From Raja brachyura (lineage: Eukaryota), in contig OY740799.1 of assembly GCA_963514005.1 (NCBI GenBank), forward strand, positions 25,978,001 to 26,042,000: 64,000 nt of DNA, written 5' to 3'. Within the stretch, counting starts at the first letter, position 1; each line of letters starts with the position of its first letter. This document shows positions 1,201 to 62,787 of this stretch, piece by piece. Both the position numbers and the translations under genes were made by a program. Below the pieces are notes generated by a model, which made no database searches, had not been told where the DNA came from, and was given only the letters and a program-made list of their open reading frames with translations.

Positions 1201-3139
1201 AACTATGTGTTTGCAACTATGTCTCCTTGTTCGTGACTCTCCTCCCAAGGGTGCAAATTAAATAGCTGCCTTGTCTTGATTAATGTCAAGCATTCTGAAT
1301 GTTATTTGAAAGTGCGGCCATCCAGCCAGATAACTGGAGAGTATTCAATCATGATCGCGATGTGTCTTGTAGATGGCAGCACAGGAGAAAATCAACAGAA
1401 TGCCCAGCCTCTGGTTACCGCAGTTTTATGTGGTTGGGAAGGGCTGCCCTCTCTCAGCGTCGCTGTTGACAACCTCAACCCGAGTGGAAACAATGACCAT
1501 GGTGTTGGCTCCCAATTGTTGCCAAGGCCTCTCCTGTTGCATTGTTTTTCATAACTTCCAGAATCCTTCATTCAATAATAATTGCAGCAACGAAGGACTA
1601 ACAAATTACTTTTAAAAGTTGGAAGATAAGATTGTGGTGGTAAACCGATGAGTAACATAAAAACGGAGCATCAGAACTTTCAAAGGTATTTGAGAAGGAG
1701 AAGATTAAGGAGGGAAAACACAGATGACTTGAAAGCAAAAGACTATGATATTGGATATTCTTACCAAAACTCATTTTTAAAATATTCTTAAAACACTTAC
1801 AATACTCACCCAAGCATTGGAACTAGACTTTGTTTGATAGTGATAAGCCTTTTTGTACTGAGATCAGTGCAGGCGTCTGTGTCAATTGCACCACCAGGTA
1901 TAATTTTGAGAAAGTAGAAACAAGTACTGAAAGATTTTAAACACTCAATATACCTCGATCAGATCAGTGAAAAAGGATTGGCATTGTTTTGCACTGGACA
2001 AGTCTTGCTATATTGGGAAATATAGACAATATTTTGAATGTGGAGAATCTGAGGTTTGAATGTGACATTGTCAAATACCTACTGATACGCACAAATGACG
2101 TTTCCCCGCATTAAAAGACAATTGATGGCCTGTGATGCTATTTCTCACCATCAGTCACAGCCACATACGGAGAGATAGGAAACTAATGTGGTGGAAAGGT
2201 GGGTAGAAAATTTGGTTTATTATATTTAAGAAATTTCTCAGTGAGTCATTCATTTAAAAAAATCCAGAGAAATAATATGTTCAAAACTCAAAGCAGAAGA
2301 ATAAAAAAATGTATTAAGCAGATAAAAACAATTTCACATAGCAGCATTTCTGAGTTATCATTTCTTTCTGATCTTTGCAGTAATTGTTACTGTACTGAAT
2401 TCCTTGAAACTGGAAATATGGAGAAAGGAATCGCAGGTGTAGAATGACTCTGTTCAGCTTGAAAGAAGGACTCAGTTGATGTTAATTTCATTCTCTCACC
2501 CATTCCCATTCTCGCCTCAATCTCCAACCTAGTTACAATGAAGTTTAATGTTATTTGAGAAACTGTTTCTTCTCTCATATTACCGTGTAATTACCTCTAT
2601 TTCAAATCCACTTCTATTACATTTACTTCTCCGCTAAAGATATTGGTATTGTTATTTGTATTGCAATTTGATATTTACCATTTAACCTCTTCTGCCTTAC
2701 ATTTATCAAGATTTGTTTAACTTACAACTCTATCATGTTCTGATGAAAGGTCGTTGACCTGAAACATCACCTTTTGTTTTTCAGCTCTCTGGACCTGCTG
2801 ACTATTTTTCAGAACTTTTTTTCCATTTTTCACTCAGGTGGTAGGAGCCAGCCGGAAGGGGATGTGTACCCGGATCTCATTGGGGACCATTTTTGCAATG
2901 AGTCATCGCTGAGGTGGTATTGGGCTGTGGAGAAGAAACTGAGCCTCATATTCCATCAACTGATGCTTTTCTCAGATTTACACTAGAGCCACACTAAACC
3001 CCTATCTTGAAACTTGAACGACAGCCTCCAATGTTCAATGCCATCACAACACAGGAAGAAATTTTCCAATGGCTTTGTTTTTTGCTTTGTTGCAAAGTGG
3101 AGCCGATGATGACCTGTGACAGGGGGAAAGTAAGGTCTG

Positions 3140-6717: not shown

Positions 6718-7224
6718 TCGTGATTTTATTAATGGTCATGTTAATGCAAGTTAGATTTTATCCATATGTTGTTCATTTTAAAGGGGCATGATTTGCAGAA
6801 AAGCATATCTTCTGCTAGTTCCAATCTTTATCCAAGTCCGCCGCCCTTTTTTGCTAACACACATGAGCTCAGTACTATTTACTGGAAATAGGAAGTAAAT
6901 GAAATGTCCAAAATACACATTTTCAAAGTGAGCATTAAGGCTGTATTTTACAATAGTACAAAGCTAAAAATTGCAATTTATTTGAACATTGCGTATTATT
7001 AATCTTTGTGAATTGTATCAGAAAAGGAATACTTCTGAAGTGTATGGATCTGTACTTGATGGTTTAAAAGTGAAGAGGTATATCACAGCTATCACTGAGG
7101 TCAGAGCAGGGGCCGCACTCTGACATGTTTCTGTTTCACTTCAAATGTTTGATGTGGGAGCAAAGGTGAGAAACGCCATCTACTTAGGTGGTCCCTTGGT
7201 ACAAGACGAGTTACTTCCATTCCA

Positions 7225-7352
7225 AATACAGACACAAAATGCTGGAGTAACTCAGCAGGACAGGCAGCATCTCTGGAACGAAGGAATGGTAGACGTATCG
7301 GGTCGCGTCTATATTCGGTGTAAACCAGCATCTGCGGTTCCTTCCTACTAAT
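7225..7352. mobile_element. Penelope-derived mini-insertion with inverted halves
   Basis: Inverted pseudo-LTR piece joined to a forward 3' end. Flanked by the direct repeat ttccattcca (7215-7224 and 7353-7362). Confidence 0.7.
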
Positions 7353-7362
7353 TTCCATTCCA

Positions 7363-8659: not shown

Positions 8660-11427
8660 TAGAAACAGGATGGATTTTCGGGTTTTGTGTCATAGCAATT
8701 TTAGTACAATTTTACCTTTACAGTAGGCTTACCTGTTCAGAAATATTTCTTGGATAATGTTCCAGCAGGGAAGATTGCATTTTACTCATTATCTTAAACC
8801 AACTCTACACTGACTGAAATCACAAGTAAATGTTCCTGAATGGTACGTGAATACTATGTTGCTCATTGCCAACTTTTACCATCGTGCATGGTAGGGGGGA
8901 CATCCAATTTCAAATTTAAGCTTTGGTCTTTGTGTCTTATTTCTCCTTCAGCCTACATTAACATAACGTTCAAAGAATATCAGCTTCATAGAGTTTGATA
9001 CAATAAGCATTCAAACATGTCTGCTTTCAGTGTAAATGTACCAGCAAGTTGAGAGTGTGCTTGTGTGCTTTTCAAAGGGACATTGAGAAGTGATCCTTTT
9101 GGGGGAAAATAAAATAATTTCAGATTATGGAGCACAAAGCGGCTGTAACAAGAAAATACTGTTTTCACCAAACCTCACATGTAACTTAGTCTTTGGAAGC
9201 TCTGTTGTAGTAAATTACTAGCTCAGAAAGGTCGCAACTTGTTTAAAGTTCAGGAAAATGTACTCCTTCAGTGGATCTGTGGGTGTAGGATAATGACTAG
9301 TCCTGCCCACTGTCTTGCAAGAAAACTCCAGTGAGAGCCTGGCTTTGTGTTACTTTTGAATAGCTCACAGATCCAATTTAGCAACAGTCAACCACGAGAA
9401 AAGAAATAAAAGGGGAGAAATGAAAACCAGTATTGATATCAAAGTTTAAAATGTTTTCCACTCTATTATACCAGTACATAAAAGAAATGAACTGTCTTCC
9501 TACAGTGCAATGGTTGAATGTATTGATGTATAAACAGCATTTTGTTTCTACAGAGTTCTTTGTGGTCAGTTTTCAGATCGAGAATGGTCCAAAGGAAAAT
9601 AAAATACACCAATCATCTCTTTGACAGATACCAGAAGTTAAAACACAACTCTTGACTGCTTTCAAGGCTGGCATAGTACGACCACGTTATTTGTTAAATA
9701 AGAATTTCTACAAAGATACAACATATAAAAACTGTTAAATATATAACTTTAGGTTTCTCAAAATACATTTAATGATCCTGTTGTCAAGAAATGTTACTTT
9801 CTCCTCTAATTTGATCTTTTTTTTTTCTTGCGGTAGATGGTTGATTGAAATGTGACACAGGCTGCAGGTAGCCAGACATGCTCATTGCGAATGCTGTTTG
9901 ACAGTAGCTACTTTTGTGCTGGGAAAGGAAATAAGAGCTGCAAACGGTTCACATTTTGTTCTTTCTTTCTGGTTGAAATACAACATGACTTAAGAATGAG
10001 AAATAAGTCAGCCAAACTAAACGGGAGAGCAAGATATCCTCCCAGCGCCAATGTTCGTATGTGTCTCTTTAGTGACAGGAAATAAACTATTTTTATCGCC
10101 ACGCTCCATTAGATCCTTAGACATCTTACATCAGGACTCCCTTTTTTTATTTTTCCAAGTAAAGACTTTACCCTAGCCAGTAATGATTTATTTCAGCTCT
10201 ATGAAAAAACTGAAGAAATCCTTCAGAAACCACTACAATTGAAACCAGTGAAGCTCATTGACAAATGAGATAGTGTCCACGTCAGCATTCTCCTTGTGTT
10301 CTTTGGTCTACTGTTTTGTGAACAACGATGAGGAAATAGATGTAGAGATGTCAAGAGTTACACACATAAAAGCACAGTGTCTTTGTTGAGGAGCCTTCTG
10401 TAATTCTGTCATTGTCCCACCTGAAGCAAAGATTCACCACCTGTTCAGGGCTGAAAGAAAGAGATCAGTCTTCAATGAAACAGGCTTTTCAGGGCTGAAG
10501 TATCAACAGGGCAACGGGTAGTCCAACACCGGTTGAAATGTAGGGGCAAAGTGTTCCGATCATGGTCAATATTGCTGCTATTCAAGCTTGGCTCGGCCAC
10601 CACCAGTGTTGTCCCAGTTGTGGTTCCGATTGAGTGAAACCTTTGCTCAAAAGTTATAGATGGGATTATGCTCTTTGATACACAGCCAAAGAGAGTGGTG
10701 GAAATAACATACAACAGATGAGAGTCTGCAGCAGTAGAACTTGGCCAGGGTAAATAGATCACGCAGTTCTAAGCTGCTCCTATAGGATTCTTTCTTGATG
10801 CATTTGTCAGGAGACCTGTGAATCAATAGAAACAAATGTGAGGACATCAAGTTTATTAACAATAAATACAATTGTAATTAATCACACCTATAATCTCCTG
10901 GGGAGTCTGGAACTTTTTCAAAGTTTTCAAATATCTAATGTTTTATCACCAAATTTATGTTTCTTCACTTCAAACTGGCAAGGCAAAACAATGGTTAAAA
11001 TGGCAACAGGGAAACAAAATAATGGAAATGGTTGTACAGTCAGCTATAATCTGTATGTGCAGGCTTTATTTTATCTGTTATAAAACCAAAAGCACGCAAT
11101 ACGCATTTGTAACTATTGTTGCCTCCAGTTCTTAGTGTTCTAACTAAATCTTATCTTTATGATGTGCTAGAAATTCTTCTGTCCAAAAATAACTGAACTA
11201 AACTGGCACTGGGCGGAATAACCTGAGCCTGTTTTGCTGTTGCTACTGGTGACAAGCTTTCATTTACAATCCTTGTGCAATGATATGTGGCTGTTTTCAG
11301 CTCGCTACACATTGTCCTTATTACTGCATTGTGTGCACTTACTAATGAACTAATATTTGTTCCTGTTGGCTTTATCCTGCACCGTCTGATATCAGGGCAT
11401 CTAACAAATAAAATATACTTGGGTACA

Positions 11428-11769
11428 TGTAGAAACAAAGAACTGCAGATGCTGGTTTATACCAAAGATAGACACAGAGCAGTAAGGCACCTACTATATT
11501 TGCTGTTCTAGATGTGGATTCCTGTACATTGGCAAGACCAAGCGCAGACTGGGCGATCGTTTAGCTGAAGTCTGCCTTAGCCTACCTGATTTCCCGGTTG
11601 CCAAAACGTTAACTCCCCTTCCCATACCCATACCTGCCTGGGCCTCCTCCACTGTCAGAGTGAAGCCAAATGCAAATTGGAGAAACTGCCCCTCATATTT
11701 TGCTTGGGCAGCTTACAAGCTAGCAGTATGAATATTGATTTCTCTATTTTCAACTAACTCTTGTATTTA

Positions 11770-11800
<31 letters not shown>

Positions 11801-12286
11801 CCTCCCCCACCCTAGTCGTCCTACTAGTTATACTGCTGTTCTGCTTAGTTTCACTGTTTGAATCTGCTTGTTATCGCCTTTTCCTGTCTCGCTGAGTTAA
11901 GGTCCCACTTACGTGACCTTTACAGGCGACTGCTGGCACCCGTGATAGGTCCCCGAAATTTTCAACATGTTGAAAATTCAGCGGCGACCAGAAAGACGCT
12001 ACAACACTTTGGAGACCTCTCACAACCATAGGATACCTCTCATGACCATACAGGCGACCCCTGGCGACATGTTGCGGGTGACCTCTCACGACCATACAGC
12101 CTGCATGGTCGTGAGAGGTCTCCTATGGTCATGAGAAGTCTCCAAAGAGTTGTAGCGTCTTTCCGGTGACCTATCACGGGTGCCAGCAGTCGCCTGTAAA
12201 GGTCGCGCAAGTGGGACAGGCCCTTTACTCCAGCATTTTGTGTCTATCTTCGGGATAAACCAGCATCTGCAGTTCATTCCAACACA
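11428..12286 (+). mobile_element. Penelope-like fragment (inverted terminus + GIY-YIG remnant + pseudo-LTR), interrupted by a MITE
   Basis: Translation CSRCGFLYIGKTKRRLGDR (GIY-YIG) follows an inverted terminal piece at 11428-11480. A (CT)n tract lies at 11770-11797. Confidence 0.85.
11900..12224. mobile_element. PIF/Harbinger-type MITE
   Basis: TTA TSD (11897-11899, 12225-12227); removing the element restores the Penelope motif gctgagTTActccagc. TIRs aggtcccactt / aagtgggacaggccct, with long internal inverted symmetry. Confidence 0.85.
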
Positions 12287-15749: not shown

Positions 15750-16240
15750 TATTGAGGGAGTGCAGCGAACGTTCACCAAGTTGGCTGCTCTGACATAAGA
15801 TGGCGGGACTAACATATGATGAAAGAATGCATCAACTGGGTTTATATTGACTGGAATTTAGAAGGATGAGAGGGGATCTTATAGAAACATACAAAATTCT
15901 TAAAGGATTGGACTGGCTAGATGCAGGAAAAATGTTCCCGATGTTGGGGTGTGTCCAGAACCAGGGGTCACAGTTTAAGAATAAGGGGTAGGGCATTGGG
16001 ACCAAGATGAGGAAAAACATTTTCACCCAGAGAGTACAGAAGGCAGTGGAGGCCAATTCACTGGATGTTTTCAAGAGAGAGTTAGACATAGCTCTTAGGG
16101 CTAACGGAATCAAGGGATATGGGGAGAAAGCAGGAATGGGGTACTGATTCTGGATGATCAGCCATGATCATATTGAATAGTGGTGCTGGCCCGAAGGGCC
16201 GAATAGCATACTCCTGCACCTATTTTCTATGATTCTATAT
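15750..16240 (+). mobile_element. Relatively young CR1 3' fragment
   Basis: gagggagtgcagcgaacgttcacc, RMRGDLIETYKILKGLD.LDAGKMFP, and tail actcctgcacctattttctatg. Confidence 0.88.
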
Positions 16241-16464
16241 CATAATCATAGGGAGATAACCCATGGACACAGAATCTACAACTCACTGGCACACTATTAG
16301 AAGCGATTTAGAATGGCAAAATTAACCTGCCAACCAACACATCGGTTGAATGTGGGAGGAATTCGGAGCACCTGGAGGAAACTTGCATGCTCACAGAGAG
16401 ATCATGCAAACTCCACAATGAGAGTACCAAAGGACAGGGCACCACAGAAAGCATGAGGAGTGAT

Positions 16465-16812
16465 CATACTGAAACATATAGGACCGTTCGAGGCGCATGG
16501 CAGGTTAGAAGACAAGATATTCCATTGGGGGGAGAGTCTCCAATGAGAGAACATTGATATAAGATAAAGGGGCTATCGTTTAAACCAGCGTTGAGAGAAC
16601 TCACAGATAGTGGTGAATCTTTGGAATGCCCTGCCCCAGAGGGCTGTGGAGTCTGGATCATTTGGGGGCATTTTAAAAGGAAGATTAAGATGTTTAAGAT
16701 CTCTGGGGAACAGGCACAGCGGAGGAGTTGAGGCCAGCATAGATCAGCCATGACCATACTGAATGGCAGGGCCAAGCTGCCTATTCCTGCTCCTATTTCC
16801 TAAAGTTCTTAT
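16465..16812 (+). mobile_element. Older CR1 3' fragment
   Basis: atactgaaacatata..., gtggtgaatctttggaat, gatcagccatgacc, tcctgctcctatttcc tail. Confidence 0.65.
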
Positions 16813-16946
16813 TTGATTCTCTTATTTCTTTGTAACATTTTGAGATCAAGCATGGTTTAGTGTTAGCATTCTGGGCTGAGTTATGTTCAAGGTTTACAGT
16901 CCTACTCTAGACCTTGACTCACAAACCCAGTACTTCTGAGTGAGAG

Positions 16947-17144
16947 GGTTACACAAAAAGCTGGAGAAACTCAGCGGGTGCAGCAGCATCTAAGGAGCGA
17001 AGGAGATAGGCGACGTTTCGGGGGAAGGGTCTCGATCCGAAACGTCGCCTATCTCCTTCGCTCCTTAGATGCTGCTGCACCCGCTGAGTTTCTCCAGCTT
17101 TTTGTAACCCTCGATTCTCCAGCATCTGTAGTTCCTTCTTTAAC
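16947..17144. mobile_element. Penelope-derived hairpin mini-element (second subfamily)
   Basis: Near-perfect inverted arms ggttacacaaaaagctggagaaactcagcggg...gacgtttcgg / ccgaaacgtc...ctccagctttttgtaacc. Direct repeat acttctgagtgagag at 16932-16946 and 17145-17159. Confidence 0.85.
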
Positions 17145-17209
17145 ACTTCTGAGTGAGAGCTAGGCTGCCACGTGATGGGTTAAAGTGAGCTCTCATTTGC
17201 TGAGGGATC

Positions 17210-18395
17210 AGTGGGAGGGAAACTGTTGGAGAGAACTATTGGAGATAGGAGTTACTCACATTTGGAAGAGAATAGGCTAATTATGGTTAGCCAGCATGCC
17301 TTTGTATGCAGCAGATCGTGTCTCACTAACTTGATTCAGTTTTTTCAAGAGGTGACAAAGGAGAAGGTCGGGCAGTGGAAGTTGCATACATGGATTTTAG
17401 TAAGACTTTTGATAAGGTCCCTCATAGTAGACTAATCCAGATGATTAAAATGTCTGGGATTCACAATGACTTGGTTGTATAGATTCAGAATTGGCTTATT
17501 CATAGAAGACAGAGGGGCTATTGTAGAAAGTAGATTTTCTGGATGGAGATCTGTGACTTAAGGTTCCGCAGGGAACTGTTCTGGGACCTCTGCTGTTTGC
17601 GATTTTATATATATACATATATATATATGACCTAGACATAAATATAGATGGATTGGTGAGTAATATTGCTGATGGCACCAATATTGGAGGGGTTGTAGTC
17701 AGTGAAGAAGGCTGTCAGAAGATAGAGCGGATTATAGATCGGCTGCAGAAATGGGCAGTAGAATGGCAGATGGACTTTAACCTGAGCAATTGTGAGGTGT
17801 TGCACTTTGGGAGGTTGAATGTAAGGGGAGAATATAGTGTTATTGGTAAGACCCTCGACAACATTGACTTGCAGATGGATCTTGAAGTCCATTAATAGCT
17901 TCCGAAAGGTGGTAGATCATGTAGATAGGATGGTAAAGAAGGCATATGGTATGCTTGCCTTTATTGTAAGGCGCTTTGAATCTAAAAGTCAGGAAGTCTT
18001 GATGCAGCTCTGTAGGACCTTGGTTATGCCACATTTGGAGTATTGCGTGCAGTTTTGATTGTCTATTAAGCAGAATGCTTAATTAGAGAGTTTCAGCTCC
18101 AGAAAGAGGTTGGGGAGACTTGGATTGTTTTCTCTGGAACAACGAAGTTGAAGGGAGACCTGATAGAGGTATATCAAATGATGACAGGCATAGATAGGGT
18201 AGATATACAGAACCTATTTTTCCAGGTGGAAATGTCTAATACTAGAGAGCATAGCTATAAGGTGAGAGAGGGAAAGTTTAATAGAGATGTGCAGGGCAAG
18301 ATTTTTTCACAGACAGCAGTGGTGGCCTGGAACGCACTGCCAGGGTTTAGTGGTGGAGGCAGATATGATAGTGTCATGTAAGGGGCTTTTGGATA
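17210..18395 (+). mobile_element. 5'-truncated CR1 LINE RT remnant
   Basis: SQHAFV..RSCLTNLIQFF, VPQGTVLGPLLFAI, IADGTNIGG (FADDT), FN..CEVLHFGR, PHLEYCVQF, KGDLIEVY. Confidence 0.9.
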
Positions 18396-18489
18396 CTATA
18401 ACAGCGCTGCTCTGATCCCCATCACCAGCTGACAACCCAGGAAAGGCCAAACTGCAGCATAATTGCTAAAAGCTGCATCCATTTAGCTG

Positions 18490-18915
18490 ACTTCCCCCCT
18501 CTCCATCCCCTCCCCTCCCCCTCCCCCTTCCAAGTTCCCTGGCCAGTCTAGCTGTCTCCTACTACATATTATCTCTGTTTGCCTTGTTGTTACATTTTCC
18601 TTGATCTCCACTCCCTTTGTCCTGTTTTCACTTATTGTCCTACACTTCCTTATCTATACACTGGGGTACACAAAAGGCTGGAGAAACTCAGCGGGTGCAG
18701 CAGCATCTAAGGAGCGAAGGAGATAGGGGACGTTTCGGGTCGAGACCCTTCTTCAGACACCTTTAACACCTTATCTATACACTTCCTTGTCTATATACCT
18801 CCCACTCCCCTGACATCAGTCTGAAGAAGGGTCTTGACCCGAAATGTCACCCATTCCTTCTCTCCAGAGATGCTGCCTGTCCCGCTGAGTTACTCCATCA
18901 TTTTGTGTCTATCTA
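18490..18915 (+). mobile_element. Penelope pseudo-LTR with a nested minus-strand mini-insertion of the second subfamily (18663-18768)
   Basis: The nested piece is flanked by the 15-bp direct repeat ccttatctatacact (18648-18662, 18769-18783). Hammerhead-like cores at 18729-18756 (-) and 18821-18848 (+). Confidence 0.85.
18729..18756 (-). ncRNA. Minimal hammerhead ribozyme-like core
   Basis: Minus strand CUGAAGA-A-GGGUC-UC-GACCC-GAAAC-GUC, with all conserved core nucleotides and a 5-bp stem II. Confidence 0.55.
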
Positions 18916-19071
18916 AGCTCTACAATGTGTTATTCCTCATGCAATTAACTTTACAATTTTGATTGGCTGAAGAAATTGTCTGCTGGTTTTCCAACATTAC
19001 ATCAGTGAGCACACTGCACAAAGTAAACAAATGTATATACTGTAAAATAGCTTTACTTCAGACTGTAAACT

Positions 19072-19361
19072 ACAGAGATTCAGCAAAGAAACAGGCCCTT
19101 CGGCCCACCGAGTCCTCGCTGACTAGCAATCACCCCATACACTAGCAGTATCCTACACACTAGGGACAATTTACAATTTTACAGGAGCCAATTAACCTAC
19201 AAACCTGCACGTCTTTCGCATGTGGGAGAAAACCACAGCACCCATAGAAAACCCACGCGAGAAAGGGAGAAAGTACAAACTCCAAACAGACAGCATCCAT
19301 AGTCAGAATCAAACCCAATCTCTAGCGCTGTAAGGCAGCAACTCTACCGTTGCACCACTGT
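19072..19361 (-). mobile_element. tRNA-derived SINE (HE1-like)
   Basis: Reverse complement of the SINE consensus seen repeatedly in this window. Confidence 0.85.
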
Positions 19362-19530
19362 ATACTACAAGATCATGGAAACATAGAAACATAAAAATTG
19401 GTGCAGGAGTAGGCTATTCGGCCCTTCGACCCAGTACCGCCATTCAATATGATCATGGCTGATTATCCATAATCAGTACCAGGTTTCTGCTTCTCCCCTT
19501 ATCCCTTGATTCTGTTAGCCATAAATCTAA

Positions 19531-20192
19531 AGGGCCTGTCCCACTTACGTGTCCTTGGCACACAAATTACGCGACCTCGTGGTCGCGTTGAGGCGCACGG
19601 GCATCATATGTCCACGCGGGGCCGGTCCCACTGAGAAGCGCGGAAGAGTATGTAGTTGTGCGCAACGTCGCACGGGGCTCTGAAATATTTGTAGTGAACA
19701 AAATCTTTGCGCGCCAACGGCCTGTCGCGGAACTGGCAGCCAAGGTGGGACAGGCCCAAGACCCTGGCGCAACGCAACATCTCACCTCCAACAGCAGCAG
19801 AAGCAGGCAAACGATCGCCGAGCTCGGCCTGGGGCTCACGGCCGTTGCAGTCCGGATCCGCCCGCACTTTTACTCCCAGAGCGGGGCTAAGAAAATTGAA
19901 CATAGACACAAAATGCAGGAGTAACTCAGCGGGTCCGGCAGCATCTCTGGAGAGAAGGAATGGATGATGTTTCCGGTCAAGACACTTCTTTCAGACTGAA
20001 GAAGGGTCTCGACACGAAACATCACCCATTCCTTCTCTCCAGAAATGCTGTCGGTCCCGCTGAGTTACTCCAGCATTTTGCGTCCATCTTCAAATGACGT
20101 CACGTGCTCCAGACAGCTGTGCGGTCGAATGAAGTCGCGCGTGACCGTTGCGGCTCAACGAGACCACGAGGTCGCGTAATGGGACAGGCTTT
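19531..20192. mobile_element. PIF/Harbinger-type MITE (CpG-rich) containing a Penelope hairpin
   Basis: TAA TSD (19528-19530, 20193-20195); TIRs agggcctgtcccacttacg / cgtaatgggacaggcttt. Confidence 0.85.
19895..20093. mobile_element. Penelope-derived hairpin mini-element
   Basis: ~100-bp inverted arms centred on ttcagactgaa, with two hammerhead-like cores back to back. Confidence 0.85.
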
Positions 20193-21651
20193 TAACTCTC
20201 TCTTGCATACATCCAGTGAATTGACCTCCTCTGCCTTCTGTGGCAGAGAATTGCACAGATTCACAACTCTCTGGTTGAAAAGGTTTTTCCTCATCTCAGT
20301 CCTAAATGGCCTACTCCTTATTCTTAAACTGTGAATCCTGGTTCTGAACTCCCCCAACATCAGGAACATTTTTCCTGCATCTAGCCTGTACAATCCTTTA
20401 AGAATTTTATAAGTTTCTCCCATCCTTTTAAATCCAACGAATATAAGCCCAGTCGATCCATACAACAGAAGATGCAATGTAAATGCAATGACCTTACTTT
20501 CTTGCCCAATATTTGGAACAAGTTATTATAAGTTTAAACAGGGAACTTCAATGGTGAAAAACAAGGAAAAATAGGAATAATGTTTTTGCGGTGGGTTGCA
20601 TTCAACCTTTTCACAAACGTACCTTGTTCTGCAGGAACATCTGCCAAGGAAGCTAATGTATAGGCTGTATATGAAACTTCTGCTTAAATCAAATGCTTAA
20701 CATTGAAGCCTCTTTTCATTTGCAGTTTGTTTAATTAAATCAAATGACCAGGTAGCAAAGGTTACCCTCTACCCCCGCTGCACTGAGCAAAATTAAGATT
20801 AAATTTGGCTTGCAGAGCCCCTTTGTGGCACTTTGGGAAACTACATTCAGTTTTTTTTTTAATGAATTAATAGAAATAATGGAATTTGACAAGGTACAAT
20901 AAGCCCTCTCAAATCTCACTGCATCCCATAGGCAAATTAATTGAAATGTTCCCAAAAGCGTTGAAAGCTACTAATTCATTTCCTGTACCTTCCTTAGTGT
21001 CAAATATTTCCTGCCAGGCAAGTCATTTCCCCAAATATATTCATGCCTTGCATTGAGCTATGCAAGGAAAATTAATTTGAAGCACTTTAATTCCCATAAC
21101 CCTACCAATTCTTGAAGAATAAGGCAAGACGTCGCTTGATTTAGTACAATGAAACAGATTAGGCACCAAGTTATACTCTTTACATTAATTTATTTTTCTG
21201 CCCTTCATTCAATGCCAGTTAAGAAAAGCCAGTGGCAGAAACAATCACATTGTAATTCTAGTGTTGAAAATCTTAGATATGTTCTGGTGAAATTGGCAGC
21301 ATGGCGAGGACCACCAATGCGAGAACAATGTACCTGCAATCCCAATTTCTGAAAAGCATCCTTCGTGACTAAAAGGTAAATCCTGTTCGTAGACATGAAG
21401 CTCACACTTTTAATTATATCTATGTTTTAATACAACCTTTCATTGTTTGTTATGACCTTCTCACAATTTCTAAAATTTCTAAACATTATCATAACATTTC
21501 TAAAATGTTCAAAAATAATTGTAAAAAATAATAATTCTAAAAATAAATAGAATTTCTAAATAAATCATGAACATATTTTCAGTAATACAATGCATGAACA
21601 ATTACCTCTGCCAGAAGGTGTGGTATACAAAATAATGTGTAATATTTTGAA

Positions 21652-21863
21652 GGTAGACACAAAATACTGGAGTAACTCAGCAGGACAGGCAGCATCACTG
21701 GAGAGAAGAAATGGGTGACATTTCAGGTAGTGATCCTTGAAGGGTCTTGACCCGAAACGTCACCCATTCCTTCCCTCTGCAGATACTGCCTGTCCCGCTG
21801 AGTTACTTCAGCATTTTGTGTCTACCTTCGATTTCAACCAGCATTTGCAGTTCCTTCCTACGC
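21652..21863. mobile_element. Penelope-derived hairpin mini-element
   Basis: Inverted arms folded at the hammerhead stem II region. 15-bp TSD gtgtaatattttgaa (21637-21651, 21864-21878). Confidence 0.88.
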
Positions 21864-22292
21864 GTGTAATATTTTGAAATTGCAGCATAGTTCCAGTGGC
21901 AGAATCGGAGGGAAATCTACAAGCGTGCCACCGTACGTTATAATACTAGGGTCTCCAGCAGTGCATTTCACACAGCACATACAAATTATAAATGAGAGAT
22001 CAGCAGGGACCTCCACCTGAGACGGCAGAGTGTTTAGTCAGGGAAGGAAATAATGAGCATTTCATTTGCCATATCAGGGAGTTTGTTTGCTTCCTATTTA
22101 TTAAAATATTATTGAAGCTTTTAATAATCCTGCAGCTGGAAAGGCAATAATGCTGATCTGGCCTGGCCCAGGAGAATAATGTAAAATAGAACAGAGAAGA
22201 AGAATACTGGAGCATTACACCTCCACTTGCTGAAGCAATTTTCTGTAGCTCACATGCTATTTTCTAAAAACCATTAATACAATGTGGTTAGG

Positions 22293-22700
22293 AGTCTGAA
22301 GAAGGTTCTCGACCTGAAATGTCACCTATTCTTATTCTTATTCTCCAGAGATGCTGCCTGACCTGCTGAGTTACTCCAGCATTCTGTGTCTGTCTGTAAT
22401 ACAATATGGTGATTGATGCCTGCAAATAAACATGGCACAATAACGATACGTCAGAAATCCTTCCTGCTGGTGTAAGTATAAATATATCACACTGTTAATA
22501 AAATAAGATAGCTTCCATCGCTTAAGTCTAAGCACTCTATTAGCAGAGGTCAAACTTCAATTACAAACAATGACCCTCAGAAACAATCCCTCCTTCCACA
22601 AAACATGCTAGAGTAATAACTCAGTGGGTCGGGCAGCAACTCTGGAGAGCATGGATAGGTGATGTTTCTGGTCAGGATCCTTCTTCAGACGGGTCTCAAC
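22293..22700. mobile_element. Two short single-arm Penelope terminal fragments (22293-22395 +, ~22600-22700 -)
   Basis: agtctgaagaaggttctcgacctgaaatgtc...gctgagttactccagc, plus a reverse-oriented relative ending at cttcagac. Confidence 0.75.
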
Positions 22701-23670
22701 CTCCACACTATCACTTGAGCGTTTGACCGAGTGTGCAAACGCATGTAAAACTGAATTTTGCTTTTAATCAGATCATTGTTGTTTGATCTACAATGAATGC
22801 CTGCAGTGTGAGCCTTGCCCTGAATTGGAGAAGTAAATGATTTGAATCTCCTTGCAAAGATGATGAAAACAGAAATGAAATTGGAAGATTATTTTAAATA
22901 ATTTACTTGCTTATGTGGTGGGGTTAATGCCTTTGTGAAAGTGCAGCCAAATCACTTCTGCATTGATGACAAATTTTATTAGGTTTATATTAATCAGCAG
23001 AATTTAAGATCACATCCAAATGTGAGGCTATCAACCATCTAAATCAGATGCGTGATTTAGAGCAGCAGTGAAGGTTAGGAGATGTTGTCTGACTAATGAA
23101 TGTTCTTTCTTTACTGCACCTACACTGAATTTTTTTTTAACCAGCAGATAATCATAAATCTTTTGACGACAAGGCATGCTTACAGTTCAAAAAGCAAATT
23201 GCTCTTAAGAAATGAAATTGTTGTCAATCTGCAATAAAATGGAAATGAAGAATAAGTAATGTACTTACATCATCTGCACTTTGAAAATGGAATACAATGA
23301 ATTCAAATAAGTAAAACAATTTTGACCCTCATTTTCTTTCCCTTATCTTCCAATGTCAAGGAAATGAACTTTGCGTTGATGATGGTATCGACAGGTTTAC
23401 ATGCAAAGTAACCACAGTGGCCTGTGTGAGGTTCCCAGCAGGCAGGAACCGACACCAAAGCTAACTCTGCATCAAAAAACTGGATGCATGCAGAAATAAA
23501 TGCATGTAACTAGGTGGTTGTTCACTCTGGGGCAGGTCTTGCAAGGCATTATCCTGCTGTGCAGTACTGCTTGGCTGCACCAGACTACATTTAATTGTAA
23601 AAAAACCCCACTGCTCCCTGATAGCCCAGTTCTCCATCTTGAGATCAAATTCCCAGCCCTTGAGCACAAA

Positions 23671-48480: not shown

Positions 48481-49768
48481 GCCATCCATAGGTAGCCCAT
48501 ATCCCATGTCAAGGCACAAAACCGAAGGCTAAAACCAGACCAGATATTTCTTACTATTCCAGCACCCAAGTGGTGTCATGGCAAAGTCCGATTGTGGTTT
48601 CACTTGATGTTGAGGTAAACTGGAACCTGGAACTTCTTGTGGCTCAGGACAGACTTGGAGCAAACCTGAATTATTAATGCTACTCTGCATCTTTGCTAAT
48701 AGGTATTTGCTTCTGAACGGTTCAATTCTGTTATCTTAAATTTAACATCATTTTGATTTAAGTATTATCGCTTTTGTTTTGCAGATACAAAAGTTGCCAC
48801 CATAATGTTCTACGAATGCCTACATATTCGGAGGACCATTCATTTAAAAACCTATTTATTGTGATGCCAGAAATAATTTGCAAGCCAGTTCTGTTGTCAC
48901 TTGCTCAAGCACACAAGAACTGATGTTTGTCCCAAGCAGACAATTTCATTACATAGAGCAAATGTTTTTGGTAGCAGCTTTGACAGAATGTGTAGCCTTC
49001 AGCAGTAGGTTTCTCATTCTGTTCTAAACACAAGAATTTCATGAGCGTAGATAGTAAATGGGCTCAGCTTCACTTGATCAATTAGGCTTAGTGTGTATTT
49101 TTGGCTTTTGAGGATAATGGTATTTAGAAAAAATACAATCTATTTTGATCTCTTTATCGATGGTGGGGCATAGTTCAAGTGGAGGGAATTCAGAGAATGT
49201 TCATTAAGTTGATTCCAGGAATGCAGTGAATGCATTATGAACAAAGGTTGAGCAGCTTGGATATATAATTATTTGAGTTCAGGAGGCAAGGTAATGTTAC
49301 TGATGCAGCATAGAAAGCATCTTATCCGGATATATCACAGCTTGGAATAGCAACTGCTCTGTTAAAAACTGCAAAACATTGCTGAGAGTTGTGAACGAAG
49401 CCAGGTCCATCACACAAACCAGCCTCCCCCCCCAAACACATCGCTCATCGATTCCATCTACACTTCACGCTGTCTTGGTCTACACTTCACATCCGGTGGT
49501 CATTCCTTTCCTCTTCCCCCAAGTTATTGCCCCCTTAAAATAGAAATAATGAGAAATGTCAACTCCCAAGGCTGTGAACGTTTGGAATTCCCCACCACAA
49601 AAGTTACTGAGGTTGAGCCATTGAATATAATCAAAGGTAGGAGAGCTAGAGTTTTGGACTATAGGTCAGTCAAGGTTATAATAAACAGGAGAGCGGACAC
49701 AGGGCAAAGATCAGATCAATGGCGTCACTTAAAGCTGGACTAGCTTTACATAAGCTGAAGAATCTTAT

Positions 49769-49956
49769 GTAAGAAAGAACTGCAGATGCTGGTTTAAATC
49801 AAAGGTAGACACAATATGCTGGAGTAACTCAGCGGGGCAGGCAGCATCTCTGGAGAGAAGGAATGGGTGACATTTCTAGTTGAAACATCACCCTTTCCTT
49901 CTCTCCAGAGAGGTTGCCTCTCCCGCTGAGTTACTCCAGCATTTTGTGTCTACCTT
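49769..49956. mobile_element. Penelope-derived hairpin mini-element
   Basis: Inverted arms folded at gacatttc-tagtt-gaaacatc. 13-bp TSD tgaagaatcttat (49756-49768, 49957-49969). Confidence 0.88.
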
Positions 49957-52157
49957 TGAAGAATCTTATCATCTACTCCTGCTCTTAATACTCACTGTTA
50001 TGTTCTCGAGAGAACAAATGTCAAGAAAAAATGTTCTAAAATACTTCTGGCACTAAATGGAAGACAGTGCAACCATTACATGCACCCTGGAGTCCCTGCC
50101 TTACCCTTTGCCAACACTGGGTTTGGGGTAGCCTGAGGTGGGAGGGGGAGAGGGCTTGGAAGTAATCTTCACGCATTTACCCATGAGATCTTACTGCCGA
50201 ATGCCCTAACATCCTTCCACACCTAATCGACTCTAAAATAGTTTGTATCCATTCTAACTCCATTATCACACAGTTTCCAACAGCTTTTGTGAAGTGGGAG
50301 AATGTGATTTAGATTCACCCCATAAAGTCTGCCTTTGGCAGCCTCATGTTCATTCTTAGCAGCCAACCTATTGTCATTGTTTTTAAGGTAAATACATACT
50401 TTATGAATTATTTTGCTATTTCTAATTAGTAAAATCTATATTTGCCAAACACAGTGCACTTAACATAAATCTAGAATATTATTTAAATATGGTAGAATGG
50501 GAAGCATGTGGAATAACTTTGACTTCCTCACACAGAACACAACTCATAGGGATGGCCATTTTTGCCATCTTTGTACTTCAGTAGTGAAGCAACTACTGTG
50601 TAATTTGTTGGCCTTATCCAGAAATCATTATGCAGGTGATTTTTTTAAATGTTTTTTTCCAGATCATAAGCTTCAACATTCAAAGATCCAGCAATAAAAA
50701 TCTGATGTCTCCAAATGTCAAGTACCAGAACAGCGTGCAAATCTCAAACATCTTCTACTGCAACTTGAATGGAAATTTCAAAAAGAATTTGGATCTCCAA
50801 TAGTTTTTTTTCCAGATATTTTGAAAAGGTTTTGCAAAGCTCAAGCATTCTCTTTAGATTACATCTGAAATCCAATAAGACTGCAGGGATCAGAAATGAT
50901 ATTACCATTCATGAAGCTACAAACCATTTCAGAGCTCTGCTGCATTGTTGCTATCAGATGCAACTTGTCTTTCACGAATGTCACTGCCAAACTTGTTTGA
51001 ATGAATATATGTTGAATTCCTTTTTATATGTTAAAATCATGGGGGGAAAAAAACAAAAGAGCATTAGTTTATAGGTAGCCTGGGAAATAAAAATAAAAAA
51101 GCACTGTTTGTAGCCCAGGCAAAACTCAGACGCTGATCAAGAGCTCACTAAATAGTTGATTAAATCATGTTAAATTCAAAGAATAGGACTCAAAGCTGTT
51201 CTGTCCCTGTCCAGTTTTGATATTAATACTGCTGGCATGTCACCTGTGGCTTAATAGGTAAACACTGCCACCGAAGGTTACTGATACAGTGACAAACACA
51301 CAAAAAATAAAAGGAATTGGGTGATTTGGCTCATTGTGCCTACTCTGCCACATAACAAGATAATGGATCATCCAGTACTTCAGTGCCATTTTCCTGGACT
51401 AAATCCATATCCATTAATCTAAAAAATCTATTCATCACTCTCTTGAATATAGTTGGAAACACTCTTGAGTGGAGAATTTTAAAAGATTCATTGCTCTCTG
51501 AGTAATTAAATTTCTTCTCATCTCGGTCCGGTCTCTCCTCCTTCCAGAAATTCCAGCTGAGGGTAATATCATCCCTACATCTTCCCTGTCAAGCCACAGA
51601 AGAGATTTATAACTTTCATTGCGAATCTCTCCAGGAGCTTATAAACATGGGAGGTGATAAATTGATCTCTGCTGAACCTCACCTCAAAAGCCCACCACAT
51701 CTAGGAATCAAGGTAGCAACTTCATTGCACTCTATTCATTGCTCACATACTGTTCCTTCGGTCAGGAGACCGGACCTGCACACAATTCATTCACTTGGAC
51801 ATTCCATAAATTCAGAAGGACTTTGTAACTGCTGTGTTCAAATCCTCTTGCAAAACATGCAAAACGAATTGTGCTTAAAAAGCATATGTGTATCGGCCTA
51901 GTTCATAAAGTTGATGACTTTAACCATGTCATAATGCAGTTTCACAAAGTTATTGACACCAAACACCCGATTTCATATGTGTGAATTATCATTCCATGGG
52001 ACAAACATTTATAATTCTATGCCAGTTCAAAATAATAAAACCATTTTTTTACTTTATCTTTTAGATCATGATTTTTCAGTTACCACCTTAATCTCATTAT
52101 ATGGTCCCGAAACATATGTTTTGCTCTGTTTACGATGTTTAAAATATGAATTAAAAG

Positions 52158-52380
52158 TTGTAGAAATAAGGAACTGCAGATGCTGGTTTACACAAAAGGA
52201 CATAAAGTGCTCAAGTTTGGGAGAAAAGTTTATTAAGTGCTGGAGTAACTCAGCAGGTCAGGCATCATCTCTGAAAAATATGGATAGTTTTGGATTGGGA
52301 GAAGGGAAGAAACGTCATTTATCCATGTTCCCTAGAGATACTGCCTGGCCCGCTGAGTTATTCCAACACTGTGTCCATTT
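52158..52380. mobile_element. Degraded Penelope hairpin mini-element
   Basis: Inverted terminal pieces joined near gaaacgtc. Confidence 0.65.
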
Positions 52381-52929
52381 CATTAAAACAATTGTGCTTG
52401 TTGTTCCTTAATTTGGTGGCTGTGAGAACGGATCAATGCAATTGATTGCCCACCTGCTTGCTGACATTATTGTTGCAGGATGAGAGAGACTACAGGAGAT
52501 GGTGCCTGAAAGGAAATAAAGGAAATCTATCATCACATCGTCAGGTCTTTGAACAGCTTTACTTCACTGTTCTCTACAGAGGATGGTTCTTTAGTTCTTC
52601 ATATATAAATAATTCTTAGCACATGAACTTGCTTTCCGGCAGTCATCAGATTCTACCAAAAATTCAAGGAAAACAGTAGATTTATGGCTCAGCAGCCTGC
52701 AAGGAAAATACTTCGTTATGTATCATTATGAGATCTGTACAGTTGTCAACATTGTTTACTTTAGTCTAGTTTAGAGATATGGCATTGAAGCAAGCCAATC
52801 AGCTGACCATCAATCACCTGTTTAGACTAATATGTCTGAAGAAGGTTCTCGACCCAAAATGTCACCTTCTCTCCAGCAATGCTGCCTGTCCCACTGAGCT
52901 ACTCCAGCATTTTGTGTCTAGCTTCGACA

Positions 52930-53816: not shown

Positions 53817-55804
53817 GCGTGTGCAGACGTGGCGTAGAAGGACGAGAAGCCGAAGCAAAGAGGTGGAAGCCAAATAATCGAATGGAAACTAAGCCGAAAT
53901 GCCAAATAACTGAAAGCGTACGAAGCCGAAACACCAACTAACCGAAAGAGTGGGACGCCTAAAAGCAAACTCACTGAAAGGCCGATCTGCCGAAATGCCA
54001 CTTCACTGAAAGGCTGCGTCGCCTACAAGCCAACGTACTGAATGGCCGCTCTGCCGAAAAGTCAAATAACGGCCATGATGTCGCCGGGAGGGGGGGAAGC
54101 GGGACTTGTCAGCAATTGGTCCAGACCCCCACTTCCATCACATCATTGGCCGATGGAGACGGGAGGGTGGGGTCATTTTCCCACACAAGCCATAGGTGAC
54201 TGGGCAATCTAAACCCGAGTATCAAGTTGTAAGCGGCCGAAGGAGCACATCCCTCGGGACAGCCCCCACTCTCCCACGGCCACTGCCGCCCTCCGCCTCG
54301 TCTCCCCCGAGCGGCCGCACTGCGATGGGCTGTGTGTCGGCAGCGCCAGGTGGAGCAGAGGTGTGGGACAGGCTGGTCCCTCCGCCCACCCAGAGTCACT
54401 AACCGCGATGCACCGCCATCGGACCCCAACCCCCACACCAGGGTGATTCAATCCCCCAGACCTCCAGACCCCGCCCACACTTGGGGCATTGGCAGCCATA
54501 GTGATGCACTTTTAAAACATGGGGGGGGGGCACAAATTCCCTGTCAGGCCGATGACAAGTGTGCATGACAACGAACAATTTTATCTCCTCCCAACAAGCT
54601 CCCAAGCACAAAACACCAGGTAATCTGTAAACTGTTTTAAACAAAGATGGACACAAAAAGCTGGAGTAACTCAGCGGAATAAGCAGCATCTCTGGAGAGA
54701 AGGAACGAGTGACGTTCCGGGTCGAGACCCTTCTTCAGATCTGAAGACGGAGTCTGAAGGGTCTCGACCCGAAACGCCACCCATTCCTTCTCTCCAGAGA
54801 TGCTGCCTGGCCCACTGAGTTACTCCAGTTTTTTGTGTCTATCTTTAGTGTGACAGTTGTCTCATTTCATCGGCTTCATGTATTGCGTGCATTGAAGAGA
54901 CGCTAGACTATACATCTATTCATTCAAGTGTGCTTTTAATGAAATCTCACATCTTTGCGAGGGAGGGATGGAATGGATGTGACCACCGGCTAAAGCAAAG
55001 GCATAGGTAGGACAGGGAAGAACTATTTATACATGTAACATTTTTGTTTTTAAATCAGTAACTCTTTTTTGAGTTTTAATGCTGATCCCGTCCTGTGGGA
55101 AGGGTTTGTGGCAGCTGGTTTCATAGTGCCTTCATTAAGGGCACATTTGGATGAATAGATCCATTCAAGTGTTGTGGTCCGATGGGGGTTGGGGCCCGAT
55201 GGCAGTGCATCGTGGTCAGTGACTCTGGGTGGATGGAGGGACCAGCCTGTCCCACACCTCTGCTCCACCCAGCGCTGCCAACACACAGCCCATCGCAGTG
55301 CGGCCGCACGGGGGAGACAAGGCGGAGGGCGGCCGTGGCCGTGGGAGAGTGGGGGCTGTCCCGGGGGATGCGCTCCTTTGGCCGCTTACAACTTGGTGCT
55401 TGGGTTCAGAGTGCCCAGTCACCTATGGCTTGTGTGGGAAAATGACCCCCACCCTCCCGTCTCCATCGGCCAGTGATGTGATAGACGCGGGCTGGACCAA
55501 TGTGATGGACCAATCACTGACAAGTCCCACCCCCGCAGCAGTCACGTCCGTTATTTGACTTTTCGGCAGAGCAGCCATTCGGTGAGTTGGCCTTTCGGAG
55601 AACGGTCTATCGGTGAGTTTGCTTTTAAGTGTCCCACCCTTTCGGTTAGTTTGCTTTTAGATGTCCCACCCTTTCGGTTAGTTGGCGTTTCGGCTTTGTT
55701 TCTGTTCGGTTAGTTGGCGTTTCGGCTTTGTTTCTGTTTGGTTATTTGGCTTCCACTTCTTTGCTTCGGCTTCTTGTCCTTCGATGCCACGTCTGCGTAC
55801 CAGC
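53817..55804. mobile_element. Non-autonomous fold-back DNA element with ~620-bp inverted arms, TTAA-flanked (superfamily unassigned)
   Basis: Arms 53817-54435 and 55183-55804 are diverged reverse complements. TTAA at 53813-53816 and 55805-55808; subterminal arrays of (c/t)cgaaa-type motifs. Confidence 0.85.
54643..54846. mobile_element. Penelope-derived hairpin mini-element inside the fold-back spacer
   Basis: aagatggacacaaaaagctggag...cttcagatctgaag...ctccagttttttgtgtctatctt; axis at the hammerhead motif. Confidence 0.85.
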
Positions 55805-60120: not shown

Positions 60121-60732
60121 TTTACTATTAGGGTGGTTTTTTTTGGAGTAGCCTTCTCGACCCCTCCAGCCCAGCGCTATACCCAAACGCCAATCCGATG
60201 AGAATTTCTATCTTCAGTAATCCATATACATATCTTCTTAGAGCGATTATACAATATCGTTCATAACTACATTCATATAATATATAACGCAAAATCAAAT
60301 ATTTAATATATAAGAAAAAGTACAAAGTGTAATTAAAAAAAGAGAAAGGGGTGTTAACAGCGTGCCCAGAAAAAAAAGAAACTACACTGGTATAGTGTGT
60401 AGTGTGCATTAGTGAAAGCCACACTAGCGTGGCTATTAATCTACTGACTTCCGTTTTTTTTAAGAAAAGAGATGTTAAGTGTTCCAGCTCCTGTCTATAA
60501 TACTATGTATATTGGGGTGGGGTACTAACTTTAAGTACTTAGTAAATATTTCTATTATTCATATTACTAATTACCAGTTATTAATTTCTAGTATAATTAA
60601 TATTATAGTAGGTAATACTATATTAGGGGGACAATTAAAAATTTACTAATTAATACCAAGCTATAACAACATGTCCATTATTGCCCCTCTTTCTTAATGA
60701 ATAATTCATAACCGCAGGTCGGTAATAAAAGT

Positions 60733-61872: not shown

Positions 61873-62417
61873 TTTAAATTTCTTACCGAAGTCGCGCGCC
61901 TGATGACATCACGCAGCCTTCAATCGCACCGGAGCCGTTTTAAATCGATCTCCTGCGGTAAGTAGCGTTAGCACCCTCCTTTAACCCCGTTTTTTTAACC
62001 GATTTTTACGGAGCTGATCTGGCGCTGTTCTCCCCTAGAACATGGCGCCACCGGAAGTCGCAGCAAAACAAGTTAATTGCAGTTCAATGGGTTCTCCGGT
62101 AAACTTCACACACACTGTGAATCTGAATCATTTGTTGTCTTCTAAGAACTAAGAAAAAATCGAAAATGCTGAGAAAAATCAGGCAGCATATGTGGAAAGA
62201 TAAATAGTCAACACTTCACATCCAGTACCCTTTGTCAGAATGGGAAAGTGAGAAGCTAGCTAGTTTTCGGTAACAGGGAAGGTGGAGGATGAATGGGTGG
62301 TTCAGAGAGAATCTCTCTGATGGGGTGAAATCAGATGCCCTAATGTGGTGGCTCAGGACCAGTCAAGACTAGATTAAGCATCTTTGCCTGTGTAATGTAA
62401 TAAAAAGGACCCACAGA

Positions 62418-62580
62418 GGCTGGTTTATAGCAAAGGCAGACACAAAATGCTGGAGTAACTCAATGGGTCAAGCATCATCTCTGGAGAAAATGGATAGGTC
62501 ACATTTCAAATATCGACCCGAAACATTGCCTATCCATTTTCGCCAGAGATGCTGCCTGACCAGCATTTTGTGTCTATCTT
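62418..62580. mobile_element. Penelope-derived hairpin mini-element
   Basis: agacacaaaatgctgg...catttc / gaaacattgcctatcc...cagcattttgtgtct. Confidence 0.78.
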
Positions 62581-62787
62581 TTCTTGCGTAATGCGTTGCT
62601 AAGCGTAAGGCTGTGGATTATATGAAAATGTGAAAATGGCTGTGAAAAAAAAAAACAGAATCAAAAAGATGACAAATCACTAGATCTGATAGAGCAGTAA
62701 GAAAGGGCAAGTTACCCACAACTGACTTCCAATACTACCTGCTCTAATCTGATAATATTTAAACTTCCACTGACAATCACTTACCAT

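Follow-up and report, generated by a model that had tools for sequence, protein, structure and literature searches.

The stretch of DNA analysed here (the window) comprises 64,000 nucleotides of the Raja brachyura genome and contains seven short inserts (~200 bases) in which two copies of one sequence stand in inverted orientation. An inverted-repeat search combined with self-BLAST recovered, each in its place, all seven of the inserts that had been named in a preliminary description of this DNA, with arms of 42–95 nt and complementarity of 78–100%. As judged from sequence, all seven are head-to-head copies of the last 100–130 bases (the 3' end) of a Neptune-type Penelope-like element (PLE). 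When the inserts are folded as RNA, their z-scores against dinucleotide shuffles lie between -6.5 and -24 on either strand; a single terminus (z of -0.3 to -1.3) folds no better than shuffles. If transcribed, each hairpin would be predicted to fold into 60–90 base pairs.

The profile of the terminus matches the window 37 times, with 34 of the matches at E<1e-3, and does not match the reversed window. The arm family on which the counts below are based consists of 33 members in the 64-kb window, all from one 132-nt terminus; the weak profile matches at 30334, 34659 and 62179 and the divergent match at 2739 were left out. The density amounts to 7 hairpins and 33 arms per 64 kb. Three subfamilies are separable by eye, and the arm partners are of the same subfamily in 7 of the 7 hairpins. 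In the numbering of the terminus, +1 is the A that stands three bases ahead of the CUGA box, so that the hammerhead-like core spans +4 to +31 and its helix II +12 to +23. The features are collected in Table 1.

Table 1. PLE-derived inserts and associated features in the window.
Feature	Positions	Strand	Evidence
Left 15-bp target-site duplication of the 16947 insert	16932..16946	+	edge-repeat test; gone together with the insert in X14 and X17 contigs
16947 tail-less (short-end) arm, terminus +21 to ~+97, young subfamily B	16947..17022	-	arm alignment, profile
16947 tailed (long-end) arm, +9 to ~+131, without the start of the CUGA box	17024..17144	+	arm alignment, profile
Right 15-bp duplication copy of the 16947 insert, the copy kept at the empty site	17145..17159	+	edge-repeat test, contigs
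19895 symmetric hairpin, two short-ended arms, inner ends +1 and +4, no tail, no duplication	19896..20093	.	inverted-repeat search, edge test, profile
TAA-flanked, TIR-bounded non-autonomous DNA element enclosing the 19895 hairpin	19531..20195	.	boundary inspection
21652 hairpin, 15-bp duplication: short arm (-, inner +10), tailed arm (+, inner +9)	21637..21878	.	edge test, contigs, profile
49769 hairpin, 13-bp duplication: tailed arm (-), short arm (+), both inner ends ~+24	49756..49969	.	edge test, profile
52158 old hairpin, subfamily C: tailed arm (-, ~+15), short arm (+, +9), weak 7-bp repeat	52150..52388	.	edge test, profile
54643 hairpin: partial-tail arm (-, +3), 8-nt palindromic stub, 3-nt filler, short arm (+, +1)	54632..54845	.	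no duplication found
62418 old hairpin, subfamily C: tailed arm (-, +24), short arm (+, +17); 18-bp repeat, 3 mismatches	62380..62593	.	edge test, profile
7225 asymmetric insert, 10-bp duplication: inverted short arm (+18 to +99), tail-only arm (+88/90 to +132)	7215..7362	.	edge test, profile
18663 insert: inverted subfamily-B short arm (+2 to +96) and 8-nt stub, 15-bp duplication	18648..18783	.	edge inspection
22293 solo short arm from +1, 14-bp duplication (1 mismatch), 4 extra bases	22275..22410	+	edge test, profile
34477 solo subfamily-B short arm, 10-bp duplication, intact minimal hammerhead core	34467..34584	-	edge test, hammerhead descriptor
5'-truncated, frameshifted PLE: RT remnant, CX4CxxC linker motif, GIY-YIG remnant, 3' UTR, tailed terminus	26264..27799	-	translation, homology
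5'-truncated PLE: GIY-YIG remnant, 3' UTR, short-ended terminus, 12-bp duplication	25334..25843	+	translation, edge test

The Penelope origin proposed in the preliminary description is borne out by two longer copies that extend upstream of the same terminus, through a pyrimidine-rich 3' UTR into the remnant of a GIY-YIG-type endonuclease (25346–25831 and 26264–27799). The second of these additionally has a reverse transcriptase (RT) remnant, and its translation runs through RT motifs to a CxxC/YIG-type endonuclease (EN), with CX4CxxC between the two in frame 1. The RT piece shares 66% identity with an Amblyraja radiata protein and 56% with a Stegostoma protein (four homologues were returned) and also matches a protein bearing PF01541. 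An A. radiata protein annotated as nicotinamide riboside kinase 1 isoform X1 is made up for the most part of the RT sequence of this PLE and is apparently a gene-model artefact. A CX2-5CxxC linker between RT and EN is common to the Neptune and Nematis PLEs (PMC8557442), and the CX4CxxC before the endonuclease would put the parent with the Neptune/Nematis-type PLEs, an assignment made by motif. Direct Pfam scans of the decayed RT and EN pieces found no RT or GIY-YIG family, a PDB search with the same pieces gave no recognition, the 64-kb window holds no full-length pLTR-ORF-pLTR copy, and exact-motif scans of metagenome contigs and viral contigs yielded no match. Further traits of PLEs are present, namely an optional 30–40-bp tail at one end and an inverted, 5'-truncated head-to-head copy with a variable duplication.

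The terminus has the features of a minimal type I hammerhead ribozyme (the CUGAnGA box, helix II, GAAA and UH), with cleavage predicted after +31. Seven cores in the window satisfy a simple minimal-hammerhead descriptor, all of them outside the hairpins; by the same descriptor, none of the 14 hairpin arms has an intact core, and Rfam at the gathering threshold has no match in the window. Like the minimal hammerheads of metazoan PLEs, the terminus combines the core boxes with an extra base before helix II, a G-C first pair and a palindromic ACGU that replaces helix III (PMC4209133). It differs from published PLE hammerheads in that helix I, on inspection of the aligned copies, is only 2 bp instead of 4–5 bp, and in that the core is absent or decayed in most hairpin arms; the hammerhead of the D. 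virilis PLE likewise has a helix I of 2 bp, and in Schistosoma pairs of minimal hammerheads are described on opposite strands, 100–700 bp apart (PMC4209133). An older, divergent PLE-type minimal hammerhead lies at 2739–2801 (+); its loop is 3 nt long, and the first helix-II pair has undergone a compensatory change.

The insert edges of 23 loci were examined for direct repeats, with a chance level such that a score of at least 10 occurs in 0.3% of 600 random position pairs. The clean 13–15-bp repeats earlier attributed to three of the hairpins are exact (15 bp at 16947, 15 bp at 21652 and 13 bp at 49769), the repeats at 62418 (18 bp with 3 mismatches, P ~0.015) and 52158 (7 bp, P ~0.1) are weak, and none was found at 19895 and 54643. 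Seven further inserts, at 7225, 18663, 34477, 22293, 6435, 25732 and 35074, have duplications of 10–16 bp. Three of these had previously been listed as related inserts with repeats of 10–15 bp, which are indeed present at 7225 (10 bp), 34477 (10 bp) and 18663 (15 bp, exact, 18648–18662 and 18769–18783), but 18663 is no single hairpin: a young inverted arm and an 8-nt stub, the latter being the end of the subfamily-B tail, sit in the 3' UTR of an older copy. The 10 duplications are 10–16 bp long, all different and mildly AT-rich (32% GC compared with 41%), and no target motif common to them was found; this variability agrees with the retro-insertion postulated at the outset. The hairpin centres, as had also been claimed, are distinct in 7 of 7 cases within the window.

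Contigs of four out of 20 sequencing runs (X1, X8, X14 and X17) were compared over 16200–23200, a region that covers the hairpins at 16947, 19895 and 21652. In X14 record 10 and X17 record 17, which represent two related organisms from two studies, position 16931 is joined straight to 17145 in contiguous record coordinates, so that 213 bases are absent (the 198-base insert and one copy of the duplication) and one copy is retained. The search for an empty orthologous site with a single duplication copy, which the preliminary description had recommended, thus succeeded for 16947, and this hairpin is a true, recent insertion in which both arms arrived in one event. X8 probably has the empty site too, its record 24 containing the left piece only, at a depth of 56.7 that recurs at 17196 and 17200; among the X1 records listed, none bridges 16947. 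The junctions of 21652, 22293 and 22690 were found in relatives, so that these insertions are older; that of 22690 is common to all four runs. In the latter insert (22595–22707), a direct stub of 11 nt (+12 to +22) comes after an inverted short arm that reaches +2, and the 6-bp repeat has a score at chance level. An assembly fold-back artefact is ruled out as the source of the hairpins, since the single copy found at the empty site agrees with the duplication and the arms of the old hairpins are 9–26% diverged.

The outer ends of the arms, read by eye from the alignment, are bimodally distributed, with 19 of the 33 at ~+91–101, 12 at +128–133 and 2 elsewhere. Hence 31 of the 33 arms close at either of two sites ~34 nt apart, and the interval between these sites is the known PLE 'tail', a 30–40-bp extension that is often present on one end only (PMC8557442, PMC3846280). 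A tailed arm is paired with a tail-less arm in 6 of the 7 hairpins (P 0.06 against even odds), or in 8 of 9 pairs when 7225 and 18663 are counted (P 0.02 against even odds). This one-sided tail, overlooked in the preliminary description, ties the inserts to the known inverted-pLTR structure. Solo inserts with a duplication of their own end at either site, the short one (34477, 22293, 25732 and 35074) or the long one (6435), and because the short-ended solo inserts bear duplications, +98 is an end point in its own right.

The inner (5') ends are not random either. Seven of the 33 arms reach more than 130 nt upstream, into the UTR; among the other 26, inner ends are found at +1 to +4 (11 arms), +9 to +24 (11 arms), +48/+60 (2 arms) and +87/+88 (2 arms). 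The 11 ends at +1 to +4 have P ~6e-9 against a uniform distribution, a value to be read with the partial non-independence of the arms in mind. The inner ends of all 14 hairpin arms fall within +1 to +24, in line with the original observation that the symmetry axis lies in or next to the hammerhead. None of the 26 arms ends at the cleavage site (+31/+32), and units defined by cleavage, or circular units, are ruled out, as no arm begins anywhere from +28 to +35. The wall at +1 is no alignment effect, because the duplication or the partner arm directly abuts the +1 ends, and a spliced upstream exon is ruled out as its cause, the 11 arms having no common upstream sequence. The +1 site resembles an initiator consensus and reads also as a splice acceptor. 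In all three readable cases, too few to carry weight, G bases immediately precede +1; these might reflect the RNA cap.

Five inserts bear directly on how the two arms were made. In 7225, 18663, 62418, 52158 and, by 2 nt only, 54643, each arm holds bases that are absent from its partner, the short arm having 5' bases missing from the tailed arm yet no tail. It follows that neither arm was copied from the other.

We therefore favour, at a probability of about 0.62, a mechanism in which the hairpins arise when both nicked target strands prime reverse transcription, one at each start site, and the short cDNAs are then linked in head-to-head orientation. Staggered nicks 10–16 bp apart would come from the GIY-YIG endonuclease that the element itself encodes, and a dimeric RT would start one cDNA at the end of the tail (+132) and the other at its start (+98). 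Each cDNA would stop at the 5' end of the RNA (+1, initiator-like and just before the hammerhead) or earlier, often at about helix II, and end-joining with 0–11 filler bases would close the centre. The extent of the cDNAs would set the series of products, from a solo arm (34477) through an arm with an 8-nt stub (18663) and an arm with a tail (7225) to the full hairpin, and the ribozyme would mark the place without cutting the template. The two arms from +87/+88, beside the short site, hint that both primers can occupy one RNA, in which case full hairpins would need strand displacement or a second RNA. We infer that the RNA begins at +1; the splice-acceptor reading counts against this, as does the D. 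virilis PLE, with a start site ~120 nt before the hammerhead (PMC2377424, PMC4209133) and an intron that ends at helix I (PMC4209133).

The proposed steps are drawn from one window, with the biochemistry taken by analogy from a Poseidon, not a Neptune, element. For the Anolis Poseidon element PAc in vitro, both strands are described as cut and extended, uncleaved RNA as the substrate and a dimer as predicted, and the tail of the Anolis PLE extends from one of two internal RT start sites to the other (PMC11167929). The skate inserts resemble PAc in having two apparent internal RT starts that bound the tail, ~100–150 nt downstream of the hammerhead, in the extension of both strands and in that cleavage would be unneeded; they differ in the clade (Neptune compared with Poseidon) and in the joined head-to-head mini-products, which do not appear in the main text on PAc (PMC11167929).

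The best-surviving alternative, although an unlikely one, is that a single cDNA, by folding back or self-priming close to the hammerhead, serves as its own template, with the endonuclease resolving the second end 34 nt short and so leaving a one-sided tail. This resembles the interpretation of Arkhipova et al. 2013, who attribute palindromes at inverted junctions to self-priming (PMC3846280). The near-symmetric centres of 19895, 21652 and 49769 and the 8-nt palindromic stub of 54643 are what fold-back predicts and count against two primings; it is also favoured by the direct stub of 11 nt at 22690, by several arms whose inner ends fall at the base of helix II (+21 to +24) and by the shared subfamily of the arms in all 7 hairpins, and small asymmetries in old copies could have come from later deletions. 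Fold-back, however, cannot yield 7225 or 18663, whose arms do not overlap, nor, barring later deletion, 62418 and 52158; the short-ended solo inserts with duplications make +98 an independent end point; and the exact helix-II snap-back form occurs in no junction. The specific proposal of the preliminary description, fold-back 'at the ribozyme' as the main route, is not supported: 0 of 26 starts at +31/+32, a largest pile-up just before the ribozyme, outer ends at the two tail sites and the five inserts with mutually missing bases.

It is improbable that the hairpins arose by deletion from longer inverted PLE insertions or by the chance nesting of solo copies. Nesting does occur (18663/18818 is a nested pair), solo arms are closely spaced (33 arms over the 64 kb) and 19895 and 54643 have no duplications, but a single duplication brackets both arms in 16947, 21652 and 49769, the empty site of 16947 lacks both arms at once, the arm subfamilies match in 7 of 7 hairpins, and the inner ends pile up at +1 to +24.

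Mobilization of the PLE end RNA in trans by a host LINE of the L1/Tx1 type, through twin priming, appears very improbable. The window does contain an open APE-RT ORF of 1291 aa (56332–60207), and duplications of 10–16 bp and inversions are L1-like; against this, poly(A) follows none of the 8 long ends inspected, the 10 duplications have no common target motif, and PLE copies with RT and EN sequence close at the same two ends. In L1 twin priming, two primings from two nicks give an inverted 5' part, and the layout of 7225 is exactly of this kind; the inserts differ from L1 products in having no poly(A), and the arms of the full hairpins copy the same 70–90 nt, so that two RNAs or strand displacement would be needed.

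Amplification of the hairpins as MITEs through a DNA transposase, a notion prompted by their TIR-like look and by the position of 19895 within a TAA-flanked TIR element, with a junction perhaps paralogous in X17, is just as improbable, because the 10–16-bp duplications are all different, as opposed to 3-bp TTA/TAA in the three true TIR elements of the window, the centres differ in 7 of 7 hairpins, and the ends are asymmetric. The fixed short duplication and the homogeneous copies of a MITE are thus not seen; at most the notion applies to 19895, as passive cargo.

This hairpin stands apart. The palindrome listed in the preliminary description is present, but it has neither tail nor duplication and lies inside a TAA-flanked DNA element. 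Its arms share a variant, with a divergence of 0.09 compared with a same-subfamily minimum of 0.10. The X17 contig over its left junction is 10% diverged (12/120), compared with 2–6% for orthologous X17 contigs, which suggests a paralogue with the same junction, and a DNA transposon may have captured the 19895 hairpin and spread it as passive cargo. Of the features earlier named as evidence for DNA-transposon amplification, shared junctions may exist for 19895.

Several neighbouring elements were recorded alongside the inserts. Those at 11900–12224, 19531–20195 and 28047–28289 have the same TIR, 3-bp TTA/TAA duplications and different interiors and are non-autonomous DNA elements, presumably PIF/Harbinger-like; one of the three sits in a PLE terminus and one encloses a PLE hairpin. 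At 11424–11900, an inverted tail-only arm (+87 to +133) lies 26 bases from a direct endonuclease/UTR remnant, with no duplication found; this arrangement is possibly a long twin-primed product. The L1/Tx1-type LINE at 56332–61908 (-) looks young, with ORF1 in two frames and an open ORF2 that contains Pfam RVT_1 and Exo_endo_phos domains, and the segment 35886–36468 is GC-rich with open frames on both strands.

Beyond the window, the best 15 of 21,183 joints in the contig runs include joints from other loci in which an inverted arm ending at +2 is joined to a direct arm at -3 to +2, each row being represented in each run by 12–36 separate contigs near single-copy depth. Other direct-arm starts joined to +2 in the same best 15 are +9, +19, +20, +29 and +40, mostly with 6–36 contigs per run; the 'from' position in the joint table is set by the reference sequence used. 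These varied, multi-contig joints among the best 15 indicate that such hairpins are genome-wide and diverse. The depths of certain joints are very high (5691 for X14 18755–17107 and 2392 for X1 22389–16946, compared with ~22–33 for single-copy contigs), so that some junctions recur and not every one is a unique event. The earlier inference of independent integration events accordingly holds for the most part, given the distinct junctions, but not for these recurrent joints, nor perhaps for 19895. For the X1 joint 22389–16946, a possible reading is that two short ends meet tail to tail and that this unit occurs a few hundred times. Summed depths, which are no copy number, suggest ~10^5 related copies.

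With regard to known systems, the hairpins are a minimal, ORF-less form of the published inverted-pLTR-with-tail structure, that is, a new variant rather than a new system or kind of element. They share with EN+ PLE insertions the head-to-head inverted copy, the 30–40-bp tail at one end, the variable duplication and the junction palindromes (PMC3846280, PMC8557442, PMC2377424). The PLE insertions described from Adineta have duplications of 8–10 bp, and their inverted-junction palindromes are interpreted as self-priming (PMC3846280); the origin of PLE inverted repeats and of the one-sided tail is described as undefined (PMC8557442). Unlike inverted-pLTR PLE insertions, the skate inserts contain no ORF and consist of two stubs of 75–125 nt, whose inner ends meet a wall at +1 and whose duplications measure 10–16 bp. 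Animal non-LTR retrozymes, reported in one chondrichthyan, are likewise ORF-less, derived from PLE pLTRs and hammerhead-bearing (10.64898/2026.07.22.740005; PMC7761336). Retrozymes are direct tandem repeats cut into circles, whereas the skate inserts are single inverted pairs with no cleavage-bounded unit: all paired arms are inverted, and no arm starts or ends at the cleavage site. In the full texts searched, which cover few subscription papers, neither ORF-less hairpin stubs in elasmobranchs nor a two-priming account was found.

The dsRNA proposed in the preliminary description would be a putative siRNA or ADAR substrate. Divergence between the arms equals that from unrelated copies of the same subfamily in 5 of the 7 hairpins, a level in line with neutral decay that gives no sign of pairing being kept, and a strict test for variants private to both arms of one hairpin found none in 7 of 7. 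The hairpin products are probably dead on arrival. A wider scenario, in which the PLE transcript of skates and sharks starts 3 bases before the hammerhead, the dimeric RT fires routinely from both nicks, ~10^5 strong-stop-like hairpins result that record both PLE priming events base by base, and read-through dsRNA of 70–95 bp, a large self-targeting source, silences the parent, seems to us doubtful.

The stubs are the shortest possible products of PLE insertion, with clean duplications, checkable empty sites and apparently very many copies, so that one genome-wide count can choose between two primings and fold-back and map the 5' end of the RNA. Repeat annotators will confuse such stubs with MITEs or microRNA hairpins. 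Among related species, the presence or absence of a young copy such as that at 16947 serves as a marker.
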